Of a stretch of 48,230 nucleotides of DNA, positions 928-29,249 are shown in pieces (the stretch's first letter is position 1; every line of letters begins with the position of its first letter). Location: positions 1-48,230 of the forward strand of contig JAFSBN010000169.1 of assembly GCA_017437265.1 (NCBI GenBank). The letters run 5' to 3'. The DNA comes from Clostridia bacterium. Its GTDB lineage: Bacteria; Bacillota; Clostridia; Christensenellales; Aristaeellaceae. The position numbers and the translations under genes are program-made. Under the pieces are notes generated by a model. It did no database searches and was not told the origin of the DNA. It was given only the letters and a program-made list of their open reading frames with translations.

Positions 928-1001
928 TGTGAAGGTATGGAAAACGATGGGTATATATGATAGAATATGATCAATGCATGAAAACAAAGGAGAAATGTGC
1001 C

Positions 1002-2408
1002 ATGAAAAAGCTTCACATGGGCCCTGCCCATTGCGCATTGGATTTGGGCGACGGCAGCGAACGTGCCGAATACGTCAATCAGGATTATATCCTGCATAAG
1101 ATGGGCCGGCCCCACCGTGCCGTGAATATTATGTACACTTACTATCCCCATGACAAGGAATGGCCTGCCCGTATTTCCGAAGCATGGAAGGACAAGAACG
1201 TCACCTTCCAGTGGGATTATCCCTATGATGATTATTTCCCCTACAATGTGAACGGTCAGCCCTTTGAACAGATGAAGGACATCCGTCGTCACGGTCAGGA
1301 AGTGCTTCTGACCCTGACTCTGGACTGCGGCTGCACCGATGAAGAACTGAAAGAAATCGCCCTGCAGCTCAAGCCCTTTGGCCGGATGTGGATCCGCATC
1401 AATCATGAATGCTGCGGCACTTGGTTCCAGCACAACAAGCGCTACACCTACCCCGAAGTGGGTGCGTTTTTCAACCGTTTTGCCGGCATCATCAAGGAAT
1501 ATGCTCCCAATGTCAGCGTGATTTTCTGCGGCGGCTGGGGCATGCCCGACGGCCATGTGGAACAGGAAGAAGCGTTCAAGGATTGCTACAAAGTGGCCGA
1601 TGCATGGAGCTGCGACGGGTATCTGGCGCTGCACTACGGCTGGCCTTATGATATTGCAGAAGTGGGCGGCGGCCGCTACAAGGGCGGCTGCGTGGCGGAC
1701 ATGGTGCAGCAGTTTGAACGAACCTACAAGCGTGCCTGTGAGTTGGCAGGAGAACACCGGCCCATGATCACCGCAGAATTCAATACCGACGGCGACGTGA
1801 CCGGCCCCCGGCTGCAGGGTGAATCCATTGTGCGCTTTGCTCATCACTGGCGGGACAACAAGGTGGAATGGTTCCGCGCCATCAGCCTTTATCAGTTCCG
1901 TGACCGGGGCAGGCTGGGTCTTGAAATTGAAGACCCCAACAATAAGGGCGTGGGCATTGAGCAGCCCATGCTGGCAGAGTACCGGGACAAGGTGCTCCAC
2001 GATGATTGGTTCATGCCGCAGATGACCGAAGGGGAAGAAGCTTCCGTCCCGGCACAGCTGCGCTGGGGCGGCAGTGAAGATGCTGACGGCCTGGCCATGG
2101 AAATTGAGTTTGAGGGCAATCCGGAATTCTGCGAAATGACCGTGGAACAGAAAATCGGCCTGATGGTGGAGCTGAACGGCCGCTGGTTCTACAAAGCCCC
2201 CGGTACCAAAACCATCGATTTGATGAGCGCTTTCTTTGATAAGCCTCTGTCCGGCCCCTGCAAAATGACCATGAAGATTTTTGCACCGCCGGCTGACGGC
2301 GTGAACGTGGACGACGGCAGCGCCGACTGGACGGAAAACTATCGCACCGTGCTGGAGGAAGCGCCTAAGATGCGCATCCGCTACGAACTGCCCGGCAGCG
2401 TGACCTGA
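1002..2408 (+). CDS. Hypothetical cytoplasmic protein, possibly a clan GH-A-like (beta/alpha)8 glycoside hydrolase with a C-terminal beta-rich domain
   Basis: ORF 957..2408. ATG 1002 has AAGGAG 9 nt upstream. WIRINHECCGTWF resembles the acid/base NE(H) motif of GH26/GH5-type barrels, and ITAEFN is a possible nucleophile strand. No signal peptide. The function call is weak. Confidence 0.55.
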   Translation: MKKLHMGPAHCALDLGDGSERAEYVNQDYILHKMGRPHRAVNIMYTYYPHDKEWPARISEAWKDKNVTFQWDYPYDDYFPYNVNGQPFEQMKDIRRHGQEVLLTLTLDCGCTDEELKEIALQLKPFGRMWIRINHECCGTWFQHNKRYTYPEVGAFFNRFAGIIKEYAPNVSVIFCGGWGMPDGHVEQEEAFKDCYKVADAWSCDGYLALHYGWPYDIAEVGGGRYKGGCVADMVQQFERTYKRACELAGEHRPMITAEFNTDGDVTGPRLQGESIVRFAHHWRDNKVEWFRAISLYQFRDRGRLGLEIEDPNNKGVGIEQPMLAEYRDKVLHDDWFMPQMTEGEEASVPAQLRWGGSEDADGLAMEIEFEGNPEFCEMTVEQKIGLMVELNGRWFYKAPGTKTIDLMSAFFDKPLSGPCKMTMKIFAPPADGVNVDDGSADWTENYRTVLEEAPKMRIRYELPGSVT

Positions 2409-2414
2409 ACGAGG

Positions 2415-2827
2415 CAGGGGGCTTACGCAGCCCCCTGTACCCCCGGCAGCAGGGCCATTGGCCCTGCACCCGTTCTGCGATACAGAAAACTGATTAAACA
2501 AACTTTTTTCCGCATGTTACTTGAGGAAACGGAAAGAGAGCCCACGGGCGCAATGAAAACAAAGAAAAAGCCGGAGGAAAGTGTACTTTCCTGCCGGTCT
2601 TTTTCTATTGTTTTCCCCGGATGCATAGCATCCGGTTGGCGGTGTTTCACCGCCCAGCCCGTGGCATCAGTGCCGCAGCCAACCGAAAATGTTGGGCCTC
2701 TCTTTTGCAAGCCTGTTGCTGACGGATACTTGCAACAGCGGGCAATTGCTTGTTGGTCACGCCAACTACTTTCGCTATTGGGTCCAGGGATGAAATCCCT
2801 GGTGGGGTGCAGGGGCGAAGCCCTGCA
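2415..2827. repeat. Copy A of a ~413-nt structured intergenic element (unclassified ncRNA or MITE-like)
   Basis: Aligns block-wise with 27770-28181 in the same orientation. Shared hairpins, a 30-nt identical block (2780-2809), compensatory helix changes, and no shared ORF. Confidence 0.8.
2557..2616. terminator. Bidirectional terminator-like hairpin embedded in repeat copy A
   Basis: CCGGAGGAAAG(2571-2581)/CTTTCCTGCCGG(2586-2597), with an A-rich 5' flank (AAAACAAAGAAAAAG) and a T-rich 3' flank (TCTTTTTCTATTGTTTTCC). Confidence 0.5.
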
Positions 2828-2833
2828 TAGGGT

Positions 2834-3232
2834 TTACAATTCAATAATGGAAAGGCCCTGTTCCATGGCGTCTTTTACTTTCAGCAGAGCCTGCACAGCT
2901 TCTTCCTTGGTTTTGTAGGCGCACAGGTTGTTCCAGCTGCTGATGCGGGTTTGCACCTGTAAGGTGGTGCCGTCGATACGCAGGCCGCCGTAGCAGGGAT
3001 ACAGCCTGGTTTTGTCCGGGCTGAGCACTTTGGTGCGCTGCCGGGGCTGAATGACCGTGCCGTCCTTGAGAACAAACTGATGGCTGTGCAGCACCTCTTC
3101 CATGCCTTCGGCGAAAAAATCGCTGATGGAATCGCTGACCAATTCCTGCAGCTTGTCTTCCATTTCTTCCCGAATAACTTCCAGGGCATCTTCCAGCATG
3201 GCTTGCAGATCATCCATCATTTCGTTATCCAT
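2834..3232 (-). CDS. Hypothetical protein with a very acidic helical N-terminus, co-transcribed downstream of punA
   Basis: 132-aa ORF with AAGGGAG upstream of the ATG. Lies 12 nt after punA. No motif recognised. Confidence 0.65.
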   Translation of the reverse strand: MDNEMMDDLQAMLEDALEVIREEMEDKLQELVSDSISDFFAEGMEEVLHSHQFVLKDGTVIQPRQRTKVLSPDKTRLYPCYGGLRIDGTTLQVQTRISSWNNLCAYKTKEEAVQALLKVKDAMEQGLSIIEL

Positions 3233-5799: not shown

Positions 5800-6550
5800 C
5801 GATTTTCATGTCTCCTTCCCCGGGGTGTTCCGGTTGTCTGGGCTCCAGCAGGATATCACCGAAAACGCCGTCCTGCACTACGCCGGCCCGGCCCAGACGC
5901 AAAAGCTCCAGCACGGCCAGAAACAGCGTTACCACTTCGTCACGGGAGGGATGTTCGCTGAAGAGTTTATCAAAGTGCACCGGGCCTTTTTTCAGATGCT
6001 TCAGAATGTGGGCCGTGCACCGGGGCACGGTGTATTCATCCCGGATGATACGCCGGGCTGTCTGCACCGGCTCTTCTTCCGTGTCCTCCTGAATACGGGC
6101 CATCACCCTTGCAAAGGCGGCCAGCAGCCCGTCCATGGTGAGCCCGGTCAATTCCAGGGTGGGGGGCGGCAGGGGGTATTCCTCCGGCAGCTTCTGGTAC
6201 ATCAGCGCCGCTGCCTTTTCAAAGCCCTGCATGTCCTGAGAAATCTGCTTGAACCGCTGGTATTCTTCCAGCTGACGGATGAGGGCAGCTTCCGGATTTT
6301 CCTCTTCCGTCTCATCCTTGGGCTTTGGAAGCAGGGAACGGCTTTTGATTTCCAGCAGCGTGGCCGCCATGGCGATAAATGCACTGGCATCGTCCATATC
6401 CAAATCCGGCGCATCCTGTACGGACTGGATATACTGATCCGTTACCTGAGAGACGAAAATATCCTTGATATCAATTTTTGCCTTGCCAATCAGGAACAGC
6501 AGCATATCCAGCGGCCCTTCAAACTGATCCAGGCGTAATGTAATGGCCAT
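5786..6550 (-). CDS. scpA: Segregation and condensation protein A (kleisin)
   Basis: FEGPLDMLLFLI N-terminal kleisin motif, immediately upstream of scpB. Confidence 0.9.
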   Translation of the reverse strand: MAITLRLDQFEGPLDMLLFLIGKAKIDIKDIFVSQVTDQYIQSVQDAPDLDMDDASAFIAMAATLLEIKSRSLLPKPKDETEEENPEAALIRQLEEYQRFKQISQDMQGFEKAAALMYQKLPEEYPLPPPTLELTGLTMDGLLAAFARVMARIQEDTEEEPVQTARRIIRDEYTVPRCTAHILKHLKKGPVHFDKLFSEHPSRDEVVTLFLAVLELLRLGRAGVVQDGVFGDILLEPRQPEHPGEGDMKIDGYE

Positions 6551-7514: not shown

Positions 7515-7615
7515 ACAAAATGTGGTATTCTTATCGTTGGATAAATTTGTAATTTGAAAGCGTGGAAAATAAAGCGTATATCCGCATGATTTCTTTGGAG
7601 GAGGCGTCATCCCCT

Positions 7616-10600
7616 ATGCGTAAACACCGCTCGCTTGTACTGGTATTGATGATGATCGTTCTTTGCGCCACCATCATTGTAGGCTCCACCATGGCCTACT
7701 ATACCGACGAAGTGCCCGCAGGTGAAAATCTGGTCACTTCCGGTGATCTGGAAGTGAAATTTGAATGGGCTGATAAACTGGGTGAAGGGTGGCAGGACGC
7801 CGCCTCAGCCGGTCCGATTTTCAATCAGACCCATTGGGAACCCAATTTCACCACGGTGAAATACATTCGGGTTTCCAACACGGGCGATATGCCTTTCCAG
7901 TATGAGTTGAACGTGGTGCCCACGCTGGTGCCGGAAAACGGCGTGAACCTGATGGACGTGATCGACGTCTATTTTGGCGTTGTAGACGAGAATACGCCTG
8001 CCATTACCGCTGCCAACTATGCCGATGAACTGCAGAAAGTGGGCAATCTGACAGCGCTTCTCAAAAATGAAAACGGTGCCGGCTATGGCATTGTGCTTCC
8101 CAAAGACGCCAAAGGCACGCTGCCTCAGGGCGCAATAGCCTATAATGAATCCGTCACCGTCTGTATTGCGCTCCATATGCAGCACACCGCCGGCAACGAA
8201 TATATGAACCGGTCCGTGGGTGAAGGCTTTAACGTGCAGCTGGCAGCCACTCAGTACACTTATGACGATGCTTTCGGAACGCTTTTCTCCGGCGGTGCGC
8301 AGCTGCCTGAAGTGGAATATGCCACCAGCAAAACCGTCTCCGTCACGCCCGATGAAAACGGCCTTGTGCCTTACGATATCGTATTCGAAAGCGATACCGG
8401 CGTCATTGCCGTCGTGCCCAAGGGTGCCAGGATGGAACAGGGTGCCAATCAGCTGATCCTGATCGTTTACCCCAAAGCCAAATCCGATGCCAATCTTACC
8501 CTTTCCGAAAATGAACAGGTGAAGGCCTGGGAAGTGGAAGTGGAAGGCCTGGCCGATGACAATACCGTGCCTGTCCGCTTCACCCTGCCCGAAGCCATGC
8601 AAAAGGGCCTGAACATCGGCAACTATTCCCTCTACCATGTGGAAAACGGCACTTCCGTTCCCATGACCCGTGTGGAAGAAATCACTGCCTCCTCTGCTCA
8701 CAACTCCTTCTCCTACAACCCCGCCACCGGTGACATGGGCCTTGCCCTGGCCACCTTCAGCGAAGTGGCGATTGTGTCTGATACCACCAAAGCCTGGGAA
8801 GGCAATTTCGATTATTCCTGGTACACCAACGCTGTGGTGCCGGTTGCTGAAGGTGAGGCTGATTATATCATCGCCAATGCCGACCAGCTGGCCGCCTTCG
8901 GCGCCATCGTAGGCGGTATGGACGGCCAGACCCAGGATTCCTTCTCCGGCAAAACCGTCAAGCTGATTGCCGATATCAATCTGGGCTATGATGAAGAAAA
9001 TAAAGATGAAGAAGGCAATAGTAAGAATATCATCTTCTATCCCATCGGCTACTACAACAGTGAGAAGTCTTACGAAAAGGTCAGCGGTGGTTCTGTTACC
9101 AGCAGTGTTTCTTCCTTCGAAGGCACCTTCGATGGCAACGGCCACACCGTCAAAAACTTCTACCAGAACACCTGGGAGATGTTCGGTGACTATAATGATG
9201 GCTATTCCGACACGCCCAACCACTACAAGGATGCCATGGGCCTGTTCGGCTATGTGGTGAACGGCACCATCAAGAACCTGACCGTGGACCATTTCTCCTC
9301 CGACGGTGAATTCACCCCCACCGGTGTGATCGCCGCCTATGCGGTGAACTCCACCTTCGAAAACATCGCCATCACCAACTGCAACCCCCGTGTCTACAAC
9401 ACCGGCAACGGCGGCATCGTGGGCATCGGCGGCAATTCCGACGATCCCGATACCTACAAGCTCACCTTCAACAATATCACCATCGATAACACCAACAAAA
9501 TCTCCGCCCTCTGGGGCAGCTGGGACGTTGCCTGCGGCGGTCTGGTGGGCATGTTCCGGGGTGCCGGCCATGTTTATATGACCAACTGCCATGTGGCCGC
9601 TCAGATGGACGTGAACAATGACGTTTGCGGCAACTATCAGTACTATTGGTACCGCTACTCCGGCATGATGGTGGGCACCAACAAGAACATGACCACCGAT
9701 GCCAACGGCTACACCGTTCCCGAAACAGAAAAATTCCACGCTGAAGGCTGCACCGTCCATTTCGGCGACTGGAACGATTATTACTACTGCGAACTGGTGG
9801 CCAATTCTCTGGCTTCTTACACCCACGATCATCAGTTCAGCCGTCTGACCGAAATCAGCAGCCTTGACGAAATCAAGTCCGGCGATACCTGGACGAAGGC
9901 GGGCAACTTCCTGCTCATCAGCGACGACACCAAGACCTGCTACCATATCGTAAATAAAGACGGCACTCTGACCCAGCACCTGCACACCGATGCCGGTAAA
10001 GAAACGGTTGCGGGCATGTCTGGCATATTGAAGGAAGACAAGCAAATCATCTACTTGCCTTTCAATCAGCTTTTTACAGGTTATGGCTGGGGCGTGAAGC
10101 ACATCCCTATTTACGATGATGGTACGCCGAATCCGTTTGTCGGGGTAACCATTCATGAGCGAAAGATTGCCAAGTCTGTTGAAAAATTTACCGCTAATGG
10201 CAATGTGCTGAAATTGAAGAAAGATACATCCTATACGTTGGACGTGTTGTTCTCTGCAATTGAAGAGGCAGAAGTGCCGATCAACGATTCATCTGTGACT
10301 GTTGGTATTACCAACCATTCTGAGGAAAATCCCGTAACCGCGACATTTGACGGCACGCCTACAAATTGGCAAGAAAAAACCATTACCTTTACCAGTAATG
10401 GAACAATTGATATTATCATTCAGGACTATCAGTTCTGTATTCCCACAAAATTGACTGTTGATATTGCTGATGCAGAAGAAATTAAAAAAATTGAAAAATT
10501 CGAAGTTGCATTTGATCATGATACAATAACAGATGGTAATCAAAATTATACCGAAAAATATATGTATCGTGTAGGTAATGCGAATCCCGTTTCGATGAGT

Positions 10601-13294
10601 TCACTGTTTGAAGCGAAGCTTGATGCAACAATCGGCACTGTAGAAGTGACAGTTGAAACGATTGATGGTAATGCTTCCGGCACTTACACCTCCAATGCCA
10701 CCGATTGGACGAAGGGCACCATCCAGTTCAGCGGCACCGGTGTGGTGAAGGTGACCATCACGGATAACGTTTACTGTATTCCCACCGAACTGACTCTGGA
10801 AGTGGTGGATGCTGTGAACGCCACCACCGCCGCCAGCGCAACCAAGAACAACGTGGTGCTGCTGAATGACTGTGGGTTCGGTTCGCTGGAGGTGTCCGGC
10901 GGCTATACGCTGTACGGCAACGGCTTCACCATGACCTGCGGCAGCGACTCGGCTGCGCTGGATATGGGTTATGCTTTTGTGACGCTGAACAATGGTATAC
11001 TGGACAATGTGCAGATTGATTGCCCCAACTTCGATTATGCAGTATTGTACAAGTCCAATATGACCGAAAGCGGTAACCGTAGCGAAACTACCGACAGAAC
11101 CCGTTACTTCAATGTGAAGAGCGGTGTGATGGTCTCCGGCAACAGCCAGATCCTGAACAGCCGCATTTCCGGCGGCCGTGCTGCTGTGAACGTGACCGGC
11201 GGCAATGTGGTGATCGATAATTCCCGCATTGAGCTGGGTGCTGTGGCCAGCCTTCTGGTGGGTAGCGCCAACAGCCTGACCCTGCGGGATGTGACCCTGG
11301 TGCAGAAGCCCACTGCTTCCACCTATGACAGCAACAAGACACTGATGGGTTTCAGTGTGCTGTTTGTCTGCGATGCAAACGGTGATGCGGCCCCTGTAAC
11401 CCTGGAAGGCACGCTGGTGCAGAATGCTTGGGTTGATGAAAACGATAAGCAGTATGTGCCCAGCGCCGGTCAGAGCATTATCAGCACGGTGCTTGGAAAG
11501 ACGGAATATCTCCATGACCTTGACGGTAACGGCACAAAGGAATCTCTGAACCTTGGCTTTGCCTACATGCCGGAATCCCTGACTTCCAAGGTGAATACCA
11601 CCACCATCACCGATAATCGTACCAACAAGGATACTGTTCCTTATGATTATGCGGAAGTGAGCATTCTCAATGGCAAAACCTATGTGTACTCCTACAAGAA
11701 CACCCATGGCACGGAAGATTCCTTCAAGACGGAAAGCGAATATAAGCCCAACAAGTATGGTGATATCATCACGGTAAACTATTCCGATACGGCGGATGGC
11801 CTGATCACCGGCAAATCCTTCGGTACGGATGGCTGGGTGTACGAGCTGAATGTGGATCTGGACAAGCTGAGCGGCTATGCGCTGGATTTCAGCAAGCTGA
11901 GCATGAGCGTCAATGGCGTGACGGTGACCGACTTCAAGGTGAATGGCAATGACAAGCCCACTTCCCCTGTAGCAGTAACGGCAGGCGGCACCACCTACAC
12001 CCTGACCGCTACCATTGACGATAAGGAATACACCGCCACCTATAAAGTGACCGGCACCGAAACCAGTAAGGAATCACCTTCCAAGATTTCGGGACCGACT
12101 GCAGAAGGCTTTGGTGTGGCCAAGAGTTATGGCGGTGACTGGAGCGGGGCAGCAGATGTGCTTACCGGTGTGAAGGTAAAGTATTGGAGTGTTGCGGAAA
12201 ACAAGTATGTTGAGTTTGATTTCTCCCAATTCACAGTACCTGGCAACGCTGGAAAGCTGAATGGAACGAATAACTATTGGGAGTATACACATACCAATAA
12301 TGACTTCACATTGAAGGTTACCAATACAGTGGCGATCCATTCCGGTAAATCCGTTTATGGTATGCCGATTCGCGGTACTGATGGAAAACTGTATTTTACA
12401 ATTTCCTCTACGAATGGTTATGTGGGCTCTGGTACTACAAGCCGAGCGATTACCATGCAGTATGAATTCACTGATAATAACGGCGGAGAAAAGCTCACAT
12501 TTACACACACATTTAACATTTCCTATAGTAAAAACGGGCAGTATAGCTATAGTGACTTGTCGGGGAGTGGCAAGCTGACGGAGTTGACAGACAACAGTGG
12601 TGGCGGTATCACAGAATGCGTCACCCCCGACACGCTGGTCACGCTGGCGGATGGAACGCAGGTGCGGGTGGATAGCCTGACGGGGGATGAAAAGCTGCTG
12701 GTGTGGAACATGGAAACCGGCAAGCTGGACGAAGCGGGCATCCTGTTTGTGGATCATGACCCCGAAGCGGAATTTGAAATTGTGCATCTGTACTTCTCCG
12801 ATGGCACGGATGTGAAGGTGATTTACGAGCATGGCTTCTGGGACTATGACCTGAACCGGTATGTGTATCTGGACAAGGATGGGGCAAAGTACATCGGCCA
12901 CAGCTTCTTCAAGCTGAACGGCAACGGCGGCGAAAAGGTGCAGCTGACGGATGTGGTGATTGAAAAAGAAATGACCACGGCCTGGAGCCCTGTGACGGAA
13001 AACCATCTGTGCTACTTTGTGAACGGTATGCTCTCTATGCCCGGCGGTGTGGGCGGATTGTTCAACATCTTTGATGTGGACGCCGATACCATGATGTATG
13101 ACATGGAAGCGCTGGCGAAGGATATTGAAACCTATGGCCTGTTCACCTATGAAGAACTGAACGCCATTGTGGAACTGCCGGAAGAAATGTTCAATGCGGC
13201 CGGCGGTGCTTACCTGAAGATTTCCATCGGCAAGGGGAACCTGTCCATGGATGAACTGATCTACATGATCAACCGCTACAAGCCCTTCTTCTGA
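7616..13294 (+). CDS. Giant (1,892 aa) secreted TasA/camelysin-fold fusion protein with adhesin-like modules and a C-terminal Hint domain
   Basis: ATG 7616 has GGAGGAGG upstream (the track ORF opens at GTG 7562). The N-terminus MRKHRSLVLVLMMIVLCATIIVGSTMAYYTDE is a SipW-cognate type signal. The TasA-like core ends GNEYMN..FNVQLAATQYTYDD. FEGTFDGNGHTVKN / GGLVG marks a GLUG-type region (~8790-9700). There are two tandem Ig-like modules (~10170-10820), beta-helix-like repeats (~10850-11300), and a Hint domain starting at Cys codon 12617. Confidence 0.85.
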   Translation: MRKHRSLVLVLMMIVLCATIIVGSTMAYYTDEVPAGENLVTSGDLEVKFEWADKLGEGWQDAASAGPIFNQTHWEPNFTTVKYIRVSNTGDMPFQYELNVVPTLVPENGVNLMDVIDVYFGVVDENTPAITAANYADELQKVGNLTALLKNENGAGYGIVLPKDAKGTLPQGAIAYNESVTVCIALHMQHTAGNEYMNRSVGEGFNVQLAATQYTYDDAFGTLFSGGAQLPEVEYATSKTVSVTPDENGLVPYDIVFESDTGVIAVVPKGARMEQGANQLILIVYPKAKSDANLTLSENEQVKAWEVEVEGLADDNTVPVRFTLPEAMQKGLNIGNYSLYHVENGTSVPMTRVEEITASSAHNSFSYNPATGDMGLALATFSEVAIVSDTTKAWEGNFDYSWYTNAVVPVAEGEADYIIANADQLAAFGAIVGGMDGQTQDSFSGKTVKLIADINLGYDEENKDEEGNSKNIIFYPIGYYNSEKSYEKVSGGSVTSSVSSFEGTFDGNGHTVKNFYQNTWEMFGDYNDGYSDTPNHYKDAMGLFGYVVNGTIKNLTVDHFSSDGEFTPTGVIAAYAVNSTFENIAITNCNPRVYNTGNGGIVGIGGNSDDPDTYKLTFNNITIDNTNKISALWGSWDVACGGLVGMFRGAGHVYMTNCHVAAQMDVNNDVCGNYQYYWYRYSGMMVGTNKNMTTDANGYTVPETEKFHAEGCTVHFGDWNDYYYCELVANSLASYTHDHQFSRLTEISSLDEIKSGDTWTKAGNFLLISDDTKTCYHIVNKDGTLTQHLHTDAGKETVAGMSGILKEDKQIIYLPFNQLFTGYGWGVKHIPIYDDGTPNPFVGVTIHERKIAKSVEKFTANGNVLKLKKDTSYTLDVLFSAIEEAEVPINDSSVTVGITNHSEENPVTATFDGTPTNWQEKTITFTSNGTIDIIIQDYQFCIPTKLTVDIADAEEIKKIEKFEVAFDHDTITDGNQNYTEKYMYRVGNANPVSMSSLFEAKLDATIGTVEVTVETIDGNASGTYTSNATDWTKGTIQFSGTGVVKVTITDNVYCIPTELTLEVVDAVNATTAASATKNNVVLLNDCGFGSLEVSGGYTLYGNGFTMTCGSDSAALDMGYAFVTLNNGILDNVQIDCPNFDYAVLYKSNMTESGNRSETTDRTRYFNVKSGVMVSGNSQILNSRISGGRAAVNVTGGNVVIDNSRIELGAVASLLVGSANSLTLRDVTLVQKPTASTYDSNKTLMGFSVLFVCDANGDAAPVTLEGTLVQNAWVDENDKQYVPSAGQSIISTVLGKTEYLHDLDGNGTKESLNLGFAYMPESLTSKVNTTTITDNRTNKDTVPYDYAEVSILNGKTYVYSYKNTHGTEDSFKTESEYKPNKYGDIITVNYSDTADGLITGKSFGTDGWVYELNVDLDKLSGYALDFSKLSMSVNGVTVTDFKVNGNDKPTSPVAVTAGGTTYTLTATIDDKEYTATYKVTGTETSKESPSKISGPTAEGFGVAKSYGGDWSGAADVLTGVKVKYWSVAENKYVEFDFSQFTVPGNAGKLNGTNNYWEYTHTNNDFTLKVTNTVAIHSGKSVYGMPIRGTDGKLYFTISSTNGYVGSGTTSRAITMQYEFTDNNGGEKLTFTHTFNISYSKNGQYSYSDLSGSGKLTELTDNSGGGITECVTPDTLVTLADGTQVRVDSLTGDEKLLVWNMETGKLDEAGILFVDHDPEAEFEIVHLYFSDGTDVKVIYEHGFWDYDLNRYVYLDKDGAKYIGHSFFKLNGNGGEKVQLTDVVIEKEMTTAWSPVTENHLCYFVNGMLSMPGGVGGLFNIFDVDADTMMYDMEALAKDIETYGLFTYEELNAIVELPEEMFNAAGGAYLKISIGKGNLSMDELIYMINRYKPFF

Positions 13295-26526: not shown

Positions 26527-27747
26527 ATGAGCAAAATTCAGCTGGGCGTCATTTACGGCAGCCGCACCTGCGAACACGAAGTATCCATCATCAGTGCAGT
26601 ACAGTTGATGAAAAATGCCGATCCCGAAAAATATGACGTGATCCCGATTTATGTGAGCCAGAAGGGCGAATGGTTTACCGGCAGTGCGCTGCTGGATATG
26701 AAAACCTATACCCCTTTTGATCCTTTCAGCAAGGGTATCATTCCCGTCCGGCTGGATATGACCGCCGGCAGCGGTGCCCTGATCCGCTTTGTGCCCCCCA
26801 AGGGATTATTTGGCGGCGGCAAAGAAGAAGTGGTGGCACGGCTGGATGTGGTGATTCCGGTGCTCCATGGCATGCACGGGGAAGACGGCTCCGTGCAGGG
26901 GATGCTGGAACTTTCGGATATTCCTTATGCTTCCAGCGGCATTACGGCTTCTGCCGTGGGCATGGATAAGATCACCATGAAGCGTTTCTTCCGGGGCATG
27001 GGCTATCCCATTTTACCCGATTGCGCCGTGACCCGCGCCCAGTGGGAACAGGATAAAAACGCCGTGATGGATACCATCGAAAAGGCGCTGCCGTATCCGG
27101 TGTTCACCAAGCCTGCGTATCTGGGCTCCTCCATCGGCGTCAGCCGGGCCGGGGACAGAAAAGAGCTGGAAGAAGCACTGGAACTGGCTTTCTCTTATGA
27201 CCGGCGGGTGCTGGTGGAAGAAGGACTGGATATGCCCATCGAGGTGAACTGCTCTGTGCTGGGCTTTGATGGGGATGTGAAGGCCAGCGTGCTGGAAATG
27301 CCCAACACCGGCTCTGCTTTCCTGGATTTTTCCGAAAAATATCTGGCTGGTACCGGCAGCAAGGGTATGGCCAGCCTCAAGCGCATCGTGCCTGCCCCCA
27401 TCGGCGATGAACTGACAAAGGAACTGCAGCAGCTGTCCTGCCGCATTTTCAGCGATATGGATTGCAAGGGCGTGGTGCGTATCGACTATATGCTGGACCG
27501 CCACAGCGACCATTACTACATCACCGAAATCAACACCATCCCCGGCAGCCTTGCCTTCTATCTGTGGGCAGAGACGGGGCTGAAGTATCCGCAGCTGATT
27601 GATGAAATGGTCAAGTGCGCCATCAAGGCTCACGAAGAAAAGCACAAGAACAATTTTGCCTTCACTTCCGATATCCTTTCCGGCGTGACCCTTGGCGGTA
27701 CCAAGGAAAGCAAGCTGGGCGGTGTGAAGGGCGGCAAGCTGGGCTGA
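26527..27747 (+). CDS. ddl: D-alanine--D-alanine ligase (long form with a Gly/Lys-rich C-terminal tail)
   Basis: SCEHEVS-like CEHEVSI, HGxxGEDG, and EINTIPG ATP-grasp motifs. Confidence 0.92.
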   Translation: MSKIQLGVIYGSRTCEHEVSIISAVQLMKNADPEKYDVIPIYVSQKGEWFTGSALLDMKTYTPFDPFSKGIIPVRLDMTAGSGALIRFVPPKGLFGGGKEEVVARLDVVIPVLHGMHGEDGSVQGMLELSDIPYASSGITASAVGMDKITMKRFFRGMGYPILPDCAVTRAQWEQDKNAVMDTIEKALPYPVFTKPAYLGSSIGVSRAGDRKELEEALELAFSYDRRVLVEEGLDMPIEVNCSVLGFDGDVKASVLEMPNTGSAFLDFSEKYLAGTGSKGMASLKRIVPAPIGDELTKELQQLSCRIFSDMDCKGVVRIDYMLDRHSDHYYITEINTIPGSLAFYLWAETGLKYPQLIDEMVKCAIKAHEEKHKNNFAFTSDILSGVTLGGTKESKLGGVKGGKLG

Positions 27748-27769: not shown

Positions 27770-28181
27770 CAGGGGCTTTCGCAGCCCCTGAAACCCTGCG
27801 GCAGGGGTGTCACCCCTGCACCCGATCTGCGATGGAGAAGTTTTATCACTCTCAGTTTATTCCGCATGTTACATGACCTGCGGAAAAAAGCGATACCACG
27901 GGCTAAATGAAAACGAGAAAACGCCGTGGGAGAAAGTGAACTTTCTCCCACGGCGTTTATCACGTTTTCACCGGATGCCAAGGCATCCGGTTGTCGGCAG
28001 AATGCCGCCTCAGCCCGTGCGCTGATATTAGTCCAGGCTACATAAGAAAACCGGTTTACGAAAAGAATTGCTGCATCTTTTGTGGAAACAGCGGAAGAAT
28101 GTCAGAAGTATAAAGCAAGGCCTGTCCGCTGCTGGGTCCAGGGATGAAATCCCTGGTGGGGTGAAGGGGTGAAACCCCTCA
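27770..28181. repeat. Copy B of the ~413-nt structured intergenic element
   Basis: Same block order, orientation and length (412 nt) as 2415-2827. Fills the ddl-ldt gap. Confidence 0.8.
27908..27969. terminator. Bidirectional terminator-like hairpin embedded in repeat copy B
   Basis: CGCCGTGGGAGAAAG (27922-27936) / CTTTCTCCCACGGCG (27941-27955), a perfect 15-bp stem. A-rich 5' flank and TTTATCACGTTTTC 3' flank. Confidence 0.55.
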
Positions 28182-28211: not shown

Positions 28212-29249
28212 ATGAAAAGAATGATTGTGATGCTGCTGGCGCTTTGCATGTTGCCGGTATGCAGCCTGGGCGAAGGGGCATATACGCCTTCCCGGGAAGC
28301 GGTATGCCATCATGAAAACTGTTTCTGGACGACAGAAATGGATGTGGCAGACGAAGAGAAAATGTGGCAAATGCTGCAGTCGCCGGTAACGGTGCTGGAC
28401 GGCAACCAGAAGAGCCAGTATATGCTGCGGGCAGAGCCGGATAAGAATGCCGAAGCGGTGGGGGAAATCACCTGCGCCTCTCAGAGCGTGCACGTACTGG
28501 AAACGCTGGATAACGGCTGGAGCAAAGTGGAATGCTATTCCAGCTCCTTCCACGACAGCAAGACGGAAAAATGGAATGCACTGGTGCAGGGCTATGTGGA
28601 AACGGAAAAGCTGAAAACGGTGGTTCCCCATGAATATATGGGCCTGATTGTGGACAAGCTGACCCAGCGGCTGTATGTGTTTGTGGAAGGAAAATTGTTC
28701 AGCACGCTGAAAATTTCCACCGGCCTGCCCAACGAACGCCAGCCCTACAACGAAACCAGAAGCGGCGAGTTTCTTTTTGTCAGTGCGGTGGGGGATTTCA
28801 AAAGCGACAATCTGACCTGCGAAAAGGGCATCCGGTTCAACTTTGGTGATCTGATCCACACCGTGCCCCATACAGGCAGCGGCGATAGCAAGAATTACGA
28901 ATCCTTCGAAAAACTGCTGGGGGAAAGGGCCAGCCACGGCTGCATCCGTGTGCAGAGAAAGCGCACTCCGGAAGGCGTGAACATGACCTGGATCTGGAAT
29001 CATTATAAGAAAAACACAAAAATCGTTATCTGGGAAGACTGGGAAGGCAGAACAGTTCCCGAAACACCCATGGAGACCCCGGTTTTCTACAATGAATCCG
29101 GCGGCAGGAATTACCACAGCCAGGAAACCTGCTATGGCGTGAACAAAGATAAATGGCCCCTGACGGAAATCACCTATGCCGATCTGTTTATCGAAGCCTA
29201 TCAGAAGCTGACCCCCTGCGCCTATTGCGCACCGCCGGAGAAAGAATAA
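28212..29249 (+). CDS. L,D-transpeptidase (YkuD domain) with signal peptide and SH3-like domain
   Basis: SHGCIRV catalytic motif, N-terminal hydrophobic signal, AAAGGAG RBS. Confidence 0.85.
   Translation: MKRMIVMLLALCMLPVCSLGEGAYTPSREAVCHHENCFWTTEMDVADEEKMWQMLQSPVTVLDGNQKSQYMLRAEPDKNAEAVGEITCASQSVHVLETLDNGWSKVECYSSSFHDSKTEKWNALVQGYVETEKLKTVVPHEYMGLIVDKLTQRLYVFVEGKLFSTLKISTGLPNERQPYNETRSGEFLFVSAVGDFKSDNLTCEKGIRFNFGDLIHTVPHTGSGDSKNYESFEKLLGERASHGCIRVQRKRTPEGVNMTWIWNHYKKNTKIVIWEDWEGRTVPETPMETPVFYNESGGRNYHSQETCYGVNKDKWPLTEITYADLFIEAYQKLTPCAYCAPPEKE

Follow-up and report, generated by a model that had tools for sequence, protein, structure and literature searches.

A probable family of modular, inverted-repeat-bounded interspersed repeats at gene ends in gut Clostridia

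Described repeat systems and how the element compares

We analyzed a 48,230-nucleotide stretch of DNA from a Clostridia bacterium (assembly GCA_017437265.1, contig JAFSBN010000169.1, positions 1 to 48,230 of the forward strand; hereafter the window), which carries two homologous copies of a non-coding element, copy A (2415-2827, plus strand, 413 nt) and copy B (27770-28181, plus strand, 412 nt). Several described families of small bacterial repeats are built along similar lines. The BOX repeats of pneumococci and Streptococcus suis (boxA-(boxB)n-boxC and boxE/boxF; Croucher et al. 2011, PMC3049150) are non-coding, keep a fixed module order with variable internal modules, end in inverted-repeat modules, fold tightly if transcribed, and are enriched downstream of genes, and the element resembles them in each of these respects, including variable module number. 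The S. suis BOX end modules, at 115-133 nt, are near the size of the element's arms (PMC3049150). SPRITE, a terminator-like repeat enriched between convergent genes, offers a further parallel, as the element is likewise terminator-like (PMC3049150). The REP, BIME, and REPIN-RAYT systems of Proteobacteria (REP, repetitive extragenic palindromic) share with it short, GC-rich palindromes that have a conserved head and occur alone, in tandem, or as inverted pairs, as well as an extragenic position at gene 3' ends, long persistence, diverged copies, and, in BIMEs, mosaics with other motifs (Bertels & Rainey 2011, PMC3116915; PMC3337134).

Two other groups are comparable. MITEs (miniature inverted-repeat transposable elements) such as Correia, ERIC, and Nezha are described there as small, non-coding, bounded by inverted repeats, multi-copy, polymorphic for presence, strongly base paired, and able to affect transcription of their neighbors (PMC3049150, PMC3184786); our element likewise has terminal inverted repeats, is small, non-coding, and dispersed in multiple copies, and shows presence/absence polymorphism. 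The bcr1-bcr18 repeats of the Bacillus cereus group (Kristoffersen et al. 2011, cited in PMC6542083) are, in the account given in the citing paper, Firmicute-specific, 100-400 bp long, and in some cases endowed with mobile-element features.

The differences are equally clear. Compared with BOX, the element is larger (400-690 nt), also amplifies its end modules in tandem, and has a three-way-junction core that BOX lacks; phylogenetic group and GC content differ as well, so the likeness is one of architecture, and a sequence relationship is not expected. Unlike REP and REPIN sequences, it resides in a Firmicute, its inverted clusters enclose a conserved structured interior of ~300 nt instead of a short spacer, and no RAYT was found among the scanned open reading frames (ORFs) of the flanks and window. 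In contrast to MITEs, it is GC-rich rather than AT-rich, its inverted repeats are unusually long (70-90 nt) and themselves made of hairpins, no target-site duplication was seen in the diverged flanks, and no cognate insertion sequence (IS) was found in the 8-kb flanks or the 48-kb window. It belongs to a family unrelated to the bcr repeats, and the TTTAT motif to which the available account ties bcr1 mobility (PMC6542083) was not seen in it.

From the evidence below, we conclude with a probability of roughly 0.7 that copies A and B are members of a non-coding, modular, interspersed repeat family, bounded by inverted repeats and MITE/BOX/BIME-like, that spreads as DNA. A literature search for the motif returned no paper containing it, and this is a previously undescribed repeat family in the chromosomes of poorly studied, uncultured gut Clostridia. 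An initial annotation of the window, which read the element as an unclassified structured sequence, had named a match to an IS or MITE family as an outcome that would remove its novelty; no named family was matched, yet the element behaves as an interspersed repeat.

Orthologous sites, copy number, and architecture

The behavior of orthologous sites is the decisive evidence. The spacer between ddl and ykuD, which holds copy B, occurs as three alleles among organisms with Ddl proteins that are 92-95% identical: in the window the element lies forward, in L031 and L032 (Ddl 95% identical) it is reversed, and in L041 (Ddl 92% identical) the spacer is only 51 nt long and contains a plain terminator, AAAAGACGGGCAAACGCCCGTTTTTT, with no element. 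More distant relatives are without the element downstream of ddl. Opposite orientations also distinguish L001 from L016, where the flanks are colinear and 87-89% identical; L001 additionally carries an inverted remnant of the internal M module described below. Site A was empty in all five orthologous contexts examined (L043-L047). In the closest of these, L043, nucleotide identity is 93% up to the last codons of the 468-amino-acid (aa) gene that precedes copy A in the window, after which come a plain bidirectional terminator and different downstream genes. The last codon of this gene is replaced at the copy A junction, where the protein ends in ..PGSVT* in the window versus ..PGxVG* in three relatives.

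Copies at the same position are 61% (copy B and L031) and 66% (L001 and L016a) identical, paralogues within the genome RGIG1827 are 75-84% identical, and copy A shares 70% identity with copy B, less than the 76% that it shares with one copy from a different genome. Same-site copies are thus less alike than paralogues, and these patterns fit a moving or homogenized repeat and not a vertically inherited RNA gene.

Three further observations concern these sites. Gene order relative to close relatives breaks exactly at both copies (window 2397-2408 against L043 3895-3960; window 27748 onward against L033 4222-4351). The stem of the empty-site terminator in L041 (2088-2140), ACGGGC/GCCCGT, has the same six pairs that close the junction of the element (window 2542-2549/2657-2664), which could be a coincidence or a sign that the core grew inside a terminator loop. 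Where Ddl is 80% identical, a different tandem repeat of ~130 nt with the palindrome GGGAGGGTGTTCTTTTTGAAAAAAGAACACCCCTCCC lies downstream of ddl (L036 4210-4486, L037 4210-4470), and the L036 assembly shows an N-run and homopolymers at this repeat. These genomes thus seem to hold several repeat families.

To survey the family, we scanned a species-representative genome collection with a 21-mer taken from the block of the 3' arm that is identical in A and B. It matched 25 loci in 11 metagenome-assembled genomes (MAGs), with ~10 in RGIG1827 and ~8 in EPI_MAG_00147. The host MAGs are labelled Clostridia, Eubacteriales, or Ca. Limiplasma and come from goat, sheep, roe deer, and other gut samples. 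The evidence in the initial annotation was two copies; in related genomes the family is multi-copy. An nhmmer model built from A and B, searched against loci of 8 kb, recovered full-length and partial copies as well as 3' parts on their own, and a single locus often contained several of them. In a metagenome collection, a more stringent pattern of three core blocks matched a single contig and added one copy. The 21-mer was absent from viral contigs, phage records gave no match, and the sole plasmid match covered 46 nt of the 3' arm on a cryptic plasmid; we therefore rejected a phage or plasmid origin. The plasmid, pRGF00221 (1.7 kb; HG796849.1 445-489), carries a copy of the 50-nt double hairpin described below with 87% identity.

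Copies A and B align globally with 301 matches in 441 columns, or 68% identity, and a score of 143 against -273 +/- 23 for shuffled sequences. By BLAST, the first ~230 nt are 72% identical and the last 51 nt are 90% identical. The conserved blocks of A recur in B in unchanged order, and the 30-mer GGGTCCAGGGATGAAATCCCTGGTGGGGTG is identical in A (2780-2809) and B (28134-28163), with no further occurrence in the window at up to three mismatches and a chance expectation of 0. The alignment and window scan bear out the ordered blocks and identical 30-mer of the initial annotation, as well as its statement that no ORF is common to the two copies; homology also holds, although the identity it estimated by eye, 55-65%, was slightly low.

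We derived the architecture from an alignment of 14 copies and four module hidden Markov models (HMMs). The layout is (arm5)1-5 - core - (M)0-3 - [extra terminator] - (arm3)1-3, with an element length of 400-690 nt and a core of ~125 nt, whose three hairpins are enclosed by the CCACGGGC/GCCCGTGG helix. The parts of the two window copies are as follows.

2415..2520, plus strand: 5' arm of copy A (arm5 HMM E=1e-21)
2415-2437, plus strand: hairpin 1 of A, within the 5' arm, CAGGGGGC..GCCCCCTG
2449-2467, plus strand: hairpin 2 of A, GCAGGGCC-ATT-GGCCCTGC, covarying across 15 copies
2467-2471, plus strand: CACCC of A, within the 5' arm
2476-2479 / 2511-2514, plus strand: helix TGCG/CGCA of A, covarying across 15 copies
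2542..2664, plus strand: core three-way junction of A, closed by CCACGGGC/GCCCGTGG (core HMM E=7e-33; consensus fold and pair counts)
2555-2615, plus strand: long central hairpin of A, with a 5' A-tract and a 3' T-tract, bidirectional-terminator-like
2617-2635, plus strand: core hairpin of A, CCGGATGC-ATA-GCATCCGG (consensus fold)
2638-2654, plus strand: core hairpin of A, GGCGGTG-TTT-CACCGCC (consensus fold)
2667..2735, plus strand: M module of A, poorly conserved (M HMM E=3e-9)
2736..2827, plus strand: 3' arm of A (arm3 HMM E=1e-23; arm5 HMM matches the minus strand at 2822-2739, E=8e-5)
2780-2825, plus strand: REP-like double hairpin ending the 3' arm of A, GGGTC-CAGGGATGAAATCCCTG-GTGGGGTG-CAGGGGCGAAGCCCTG
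27770..27872, plus strand: 5' arm of copy B, with hairpins at 27770-27790 and 27802-27818 (arm5 HMM E=4e-21)
27896..28020, plus strand: core three-way junction of B (core HMM E=2e-30)
27919-27958: central terminator-like hairpin of B, 18 bp, an 18-pair site called on the minus strand
28021..28088, plus strand: variable region of B in the M position, aligning poorly to A and without an M HMM match
28089..28181, plus strand: 3' arm of B (arm3 HMM E=1e-17)
28134-28179, plus strand: REP-like double hairpin of B, within the 3' arm

Every module can repeat in tandem: L018 has five arm5 units, L010 has three arm3 units, and L005 has three M units, with two to three tandem M units in L005, L014, L016, L019, and L025. 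The 3' arm is also found solo. More distant genomes have only its last 50 nt, the double hairpin ATGGGTC-CAGGGATGAAATCCCTG-GTGGGGTG-CAGGGGTGAAACCCCTG-C, placed directly after an ordinary terminator hairpin. This double hairpin is nearly invariant and stands alone in other genera (L002, L008, L009, L012, L020-L024).

Both arms consist of REP-like units, GGGT[C/G]-CAGGG-loop-CCCTG, in inverted orientation, and the same units also occur solo and in tandem. The arm5 HMM matches arm3 regions on the opposite strand, and arm5 scores 42-44 against the reverse complement of arm3, compared with 18 +/- 3.7 for shuffles. The terminal inverted repeats extend for ~70-90 nt, with homology that continues beyond the palindromes. 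Complementarity is no greater between the two arms of one element (43.9) than between arms drawn from different elements (41.3). The arms are therefore homologous inverted ends rather than a co-evolving helix, and on this ground we rejected a long-range RNA helix between them.

Some individual copies depart from the common layout. Four copies (in L005, L025, L001, and L016) have an extra strong intrinsic terminator, GCCTCCCTTTCACAAGGGAGGCTTTTT, between M and the 3' arm, on the plus strand of the element. Another, in L004 (~6300-6380, minus strand), has a 78-nt hairpin insertion after TTTCCGCACGAAAC. L008 (2011-2060) has three REP-like heads, with 22-nt spacing, around the beginning of the mreB ORF (2044-3135): two lie upstream of it, and the third falls just within it. 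The L013 locus (2713-2917) terminates in a poly-C run just past a tandem REP array.

Folding, strand, and competing explanations

The closing helix of the three-hairpin junction, proposed for both window copies, forms fully in A, where CCACGGGC (2542-2549) and GCCCGTGG (2657-2664) enclose 123 nt; in B only seven of the eight base pairs form. Folding z-scores against dinucleotide shuffles are -8.5 for A and -9.5 for B. For a consensus structure, we ran RNAalifold on the 5' arm and core of 15 copies and recovered hairpin 2, the TGCG/CGCA helix, the junction closing helix, the long central hairpin, and the two smaller hairpins. With hairpin 1 added, the structure has 59 pairs, and standard pairs fill 96.3% of cells versus 88.4% with shuffled partners. 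Changes on both sides of a pair were found in 20 pairs and 76 cells. None of 500 shuffles reached the observed pairing values, and slid controls gave 45-51%. The compensatory helix changes first noticed between A and B therefore hold across the 15 copies. The helices are really maintained, which does not by itself demonstrate that RNA is the selected molecule.

Strand information is balanced. Wobble cells number 24 for G.T and 15 for A.C, without a clear G.T excess, and the reverse complement folds equally well or better in 10 of the 15 copies, so neither wobble pairs nor folding energy supports an assignment to the plus strand. No promoter-like site was present in or beside either window copy.

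The central hairpin is preceded by AAAAA and followed by TTTTT in nearly all copies, and a terminator scan called it on the minus strand in both window copies (in A, the site at 2592-2575). Its sequence has the features of an intrinsic terminator that is predicted to act in both directions. Within a single genome, identical hairpin variants turn up at different loci, which makes the hairpin part of the element rather than of the host site; for the same reason we rejected a host terminator captured between two insertions.

Known RNA families and nuclease-associated elements did not account for the sequence. A search of the whole window against Rfam 15 gave no match at the gathering score, and at E<10 only microRNA-type hairpin noise, all far below thresholds; an ARAGORN scan found no tRNA or tmRNA. 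On both points the initial annotation, which could assign the element to no such RNA and had proposed the Rfam check, was right. As the elements start just after a gene, we considered a TnpB/IscB guide RNA and set it aside, since the upstream genes encode Ddl and an unrelated conserved hypothetical protein. A non-autonomous IS200/IS605 element with a guide RNA (PATE), which would have same-strand subterminal hairpins lacking inverted-repeat homology and an associated TnpA/TnpB, did not fit either: the ends are inverted repeats beyond the palindromes, and the checked neighbors are all housekeeping genes, none of them TnpB-like.

What the initial annotation implied, a discrete ~413-nt structured RNA gene present twice, is not supported in view of the many copies, modularity, inverted ends, empty and flipped alleles, and lack of strand bias. 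A wider form of the idea is a family of structured non-coding RNA genes, acting in cis as 3' untranslated regions or in trans, with a functional junction and single-stranded blocks, that is only incidentally multi-copy. Strong stem covariation, conserved unpaired blocks, and the folding z-scores would suit such a family, as would the position of both window copies 7-23 nt past a gene on the same strand, where they would be co-transcribed, and the optional plus-strand intrinsic terminator in four copies hints at plus-strand transcription. We nevertheless consider it unlikely, because close relatives differ in how the element is oriented to one and the same upstream gene, orthologous spacers are without the element, modules are duplicated or solo, and the arms are inverted repeats with no element-specific covariation. 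There is also no G.U strand bias, the reverse strand folds equally well or better, the window copies have no promoter-like site in or beside them, no Rfam family matches, and the central terminator-like hairpin would stop a read-through transcript ~200 nt into the element. The opposite kind of explanation has nothing moving at all: an old, vertically inherited terminator-region sequence, homogenized and reshuffled only by homologous recombination and gene conversion. Greater likeness among paralogues within a genome than among same-position copies elsewhere is what concerted evolution would give, the modules show tandem duplications and inversions, and neither nearly identical copies nor, in the diverged spacers, a target-site duplication was seen. 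But empty spacers hold a complete, different, simple terminator with no element remnant, copies sit between gene pairs that are unrelated and at places where synteny breaks, and the replaced last codon at the copy A junction resembles insertion or rearrangement; we give this explanation little credence.

A closer competitor assigns the element to the same class as our reading does and is, as to mechanism, an alternative to a DDE-transposase MITE. Here the element would be a hairpin-recognized single-strand DNA unit, either REPIN-like inverted REP clusters moved by a single-copy RAYT (Y1) or an IS200/IS605-type unit, with the 300-nt interior as cargo. The loops of the hairpins are GAA triloops with C-G or T-A as the closing pair, which corresponds to the very stable d(GCGAAGC)-type DNA mini-hairpin. 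The arms are made of short GC-rich palindromes with a conserved 5' head, GGGT[C/G], and these REP-like units occur singly, in tandem, and in inverted clusters; from genus to genus they hardly vary, although the sequence around them does. At the one clean empty site, where the spacers are strongly diverged, no target-site duplication can be seen, and the copies are old and persistent rather than recent bursts, a pattern known from the REPIN literature (PMC3116915, bioRxiv 10.1101/2022.05.22.493013). Against this stand the lack of a Y1 transposase or TnpB gene beside any copy in a limited sample of flanks, a length four times that of typical REPINs, ends that are inverted repeats where those of IS200/IS605 are not, and no established conserved target tetranucleotide. 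We regard the single-strand mechanism as possible, on the doubtful side. A bolder version, in which the hairpins are selected beyond a terminator role and the three-way-junction interior of a REPIN-like Firmicute mobile unit is a functional, protein-bound RNA or single-stranded DNA module, is improbable; if true, it would be a mobile structured cargo of a new kind and not a plain MITE.

Several points weigh against an interspersed repeat that spreads as DNA. The flanks of filled and empty alleles are strongly diverged, and no direct repeat is evident at the junctions. The copies are old, being 60-84% identical with none nearly identical; this falls short of demonstrating recent transposition, and part of the pattern could be due to gene conversion. 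A functional RNA, too, would combine covarying stems with conserved unpaired blocks. Finally, no transposase or RAYT was found among the scanned ORFs of the 8-kb flanks and 48-kb window, a part of the total in which the flank ORFs were called crudely and several are probably shadow frames.

With these points taken into account, we still favor a repeat family that spreads as DNA. Spread would occur by transposition in trans, through an enzyme that recognizes the REP-like arms, or by recombination or gene conversion between copies. As possible mechanisms of mobility, we rank a hairpin-recognizing Y1 enzyme (REPIN-like) above a DDE enzyme acting on the inverted repeats, and the latter above pure recombination and gene conversion. 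Module number would shift by slippage or unequal exchange. Because an A-tract precedes it and a T-tract follows it, the central hairpin is predicted to end transcription from either direction, and the element may also give mRNA 3' ends protective hairpins; the host may tolerate or benefit from the element because of these two effects. Most likely, judging from its sequence, the element supplies a bidirectional terminator at gene ends in place of the simple terminators of empty sites.

The outcome removes a false lead, as an apparent large new structured RNA is better described as an interspersed repeat. When only a few copies are compared, covariation is not enough to tell a functional RNA from a palindrome-rich repeat; the matter is settled by examining copy number, orientation, and empty sites. 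The family takes the place of ordinary terminators at gene ends, marks breaks in synteny, and disrupts assemblies, which is of use for MAG annotation, strain typing, and non-coding RNA mining in these genomes. If the REP-like arms were served by a RAYT-type enzyme, a system best known from Proteobacteria would extend to this clade.

Neighboring genes and position relative to genes

Both window copies sit close to the genes around them, which are listed here.

957..2408, plus strand: gene left of copy A, encoding a conserved 468-aa hypothetical protein (ORF as listed 483 aa; homologues 468 aa)
2834..3232, minus strand: convergent 132-aa gene right of copy A (called on 8 contigs, with the same 425-nt spacer in all)
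26527..27747, plus strand: ddl (Pfam match and orthologous loci), with its stop 23 nt before copy B
28212..29249, plus strand: ykuD-type L,D-transpeptidase gene downstream of copy B (Pfam match and gene calls)

Copy A lies 7 nt from the stop codon of each of its convergent neighbors, and the 132-aa gene is the last of an scpA-scpB-phosphopentomutase-PNP operon. Both copies were initially placed 7-23 nt after a plus-strand stop codon, and the upstream genes are real, one by its 468-aa homologues and the other by the Ddl Pfam match. The two upstream genes, for the conserved hypothetical protein and Ddl, are mutually unrelated.

Across the family, the stop codon of an inward-reading long ORF lies within 40 nt of 17 of the 40 element ends, compared with 6.3% of random positions, in a crude count that includes some shadow frames among the ORFs. 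The element directly adjoins the 3' ends of genes, at places where a simple terminator is found in relatives. The neighbors confirmed by Pfam are housekeeping genes, encoding MreB, a RecF-like ATPase, a methyltransferase, an acyltransferase, Ddl, and YkuD, and the scanned window ORFs are chromosomal housekeeping genes or have no Pfam match. At 7562-13294 on the plus strand, a giant ORF of 1910 aa, without a Pfam match at E<1e-5, lies in an otherwise housekeeping region of the window.

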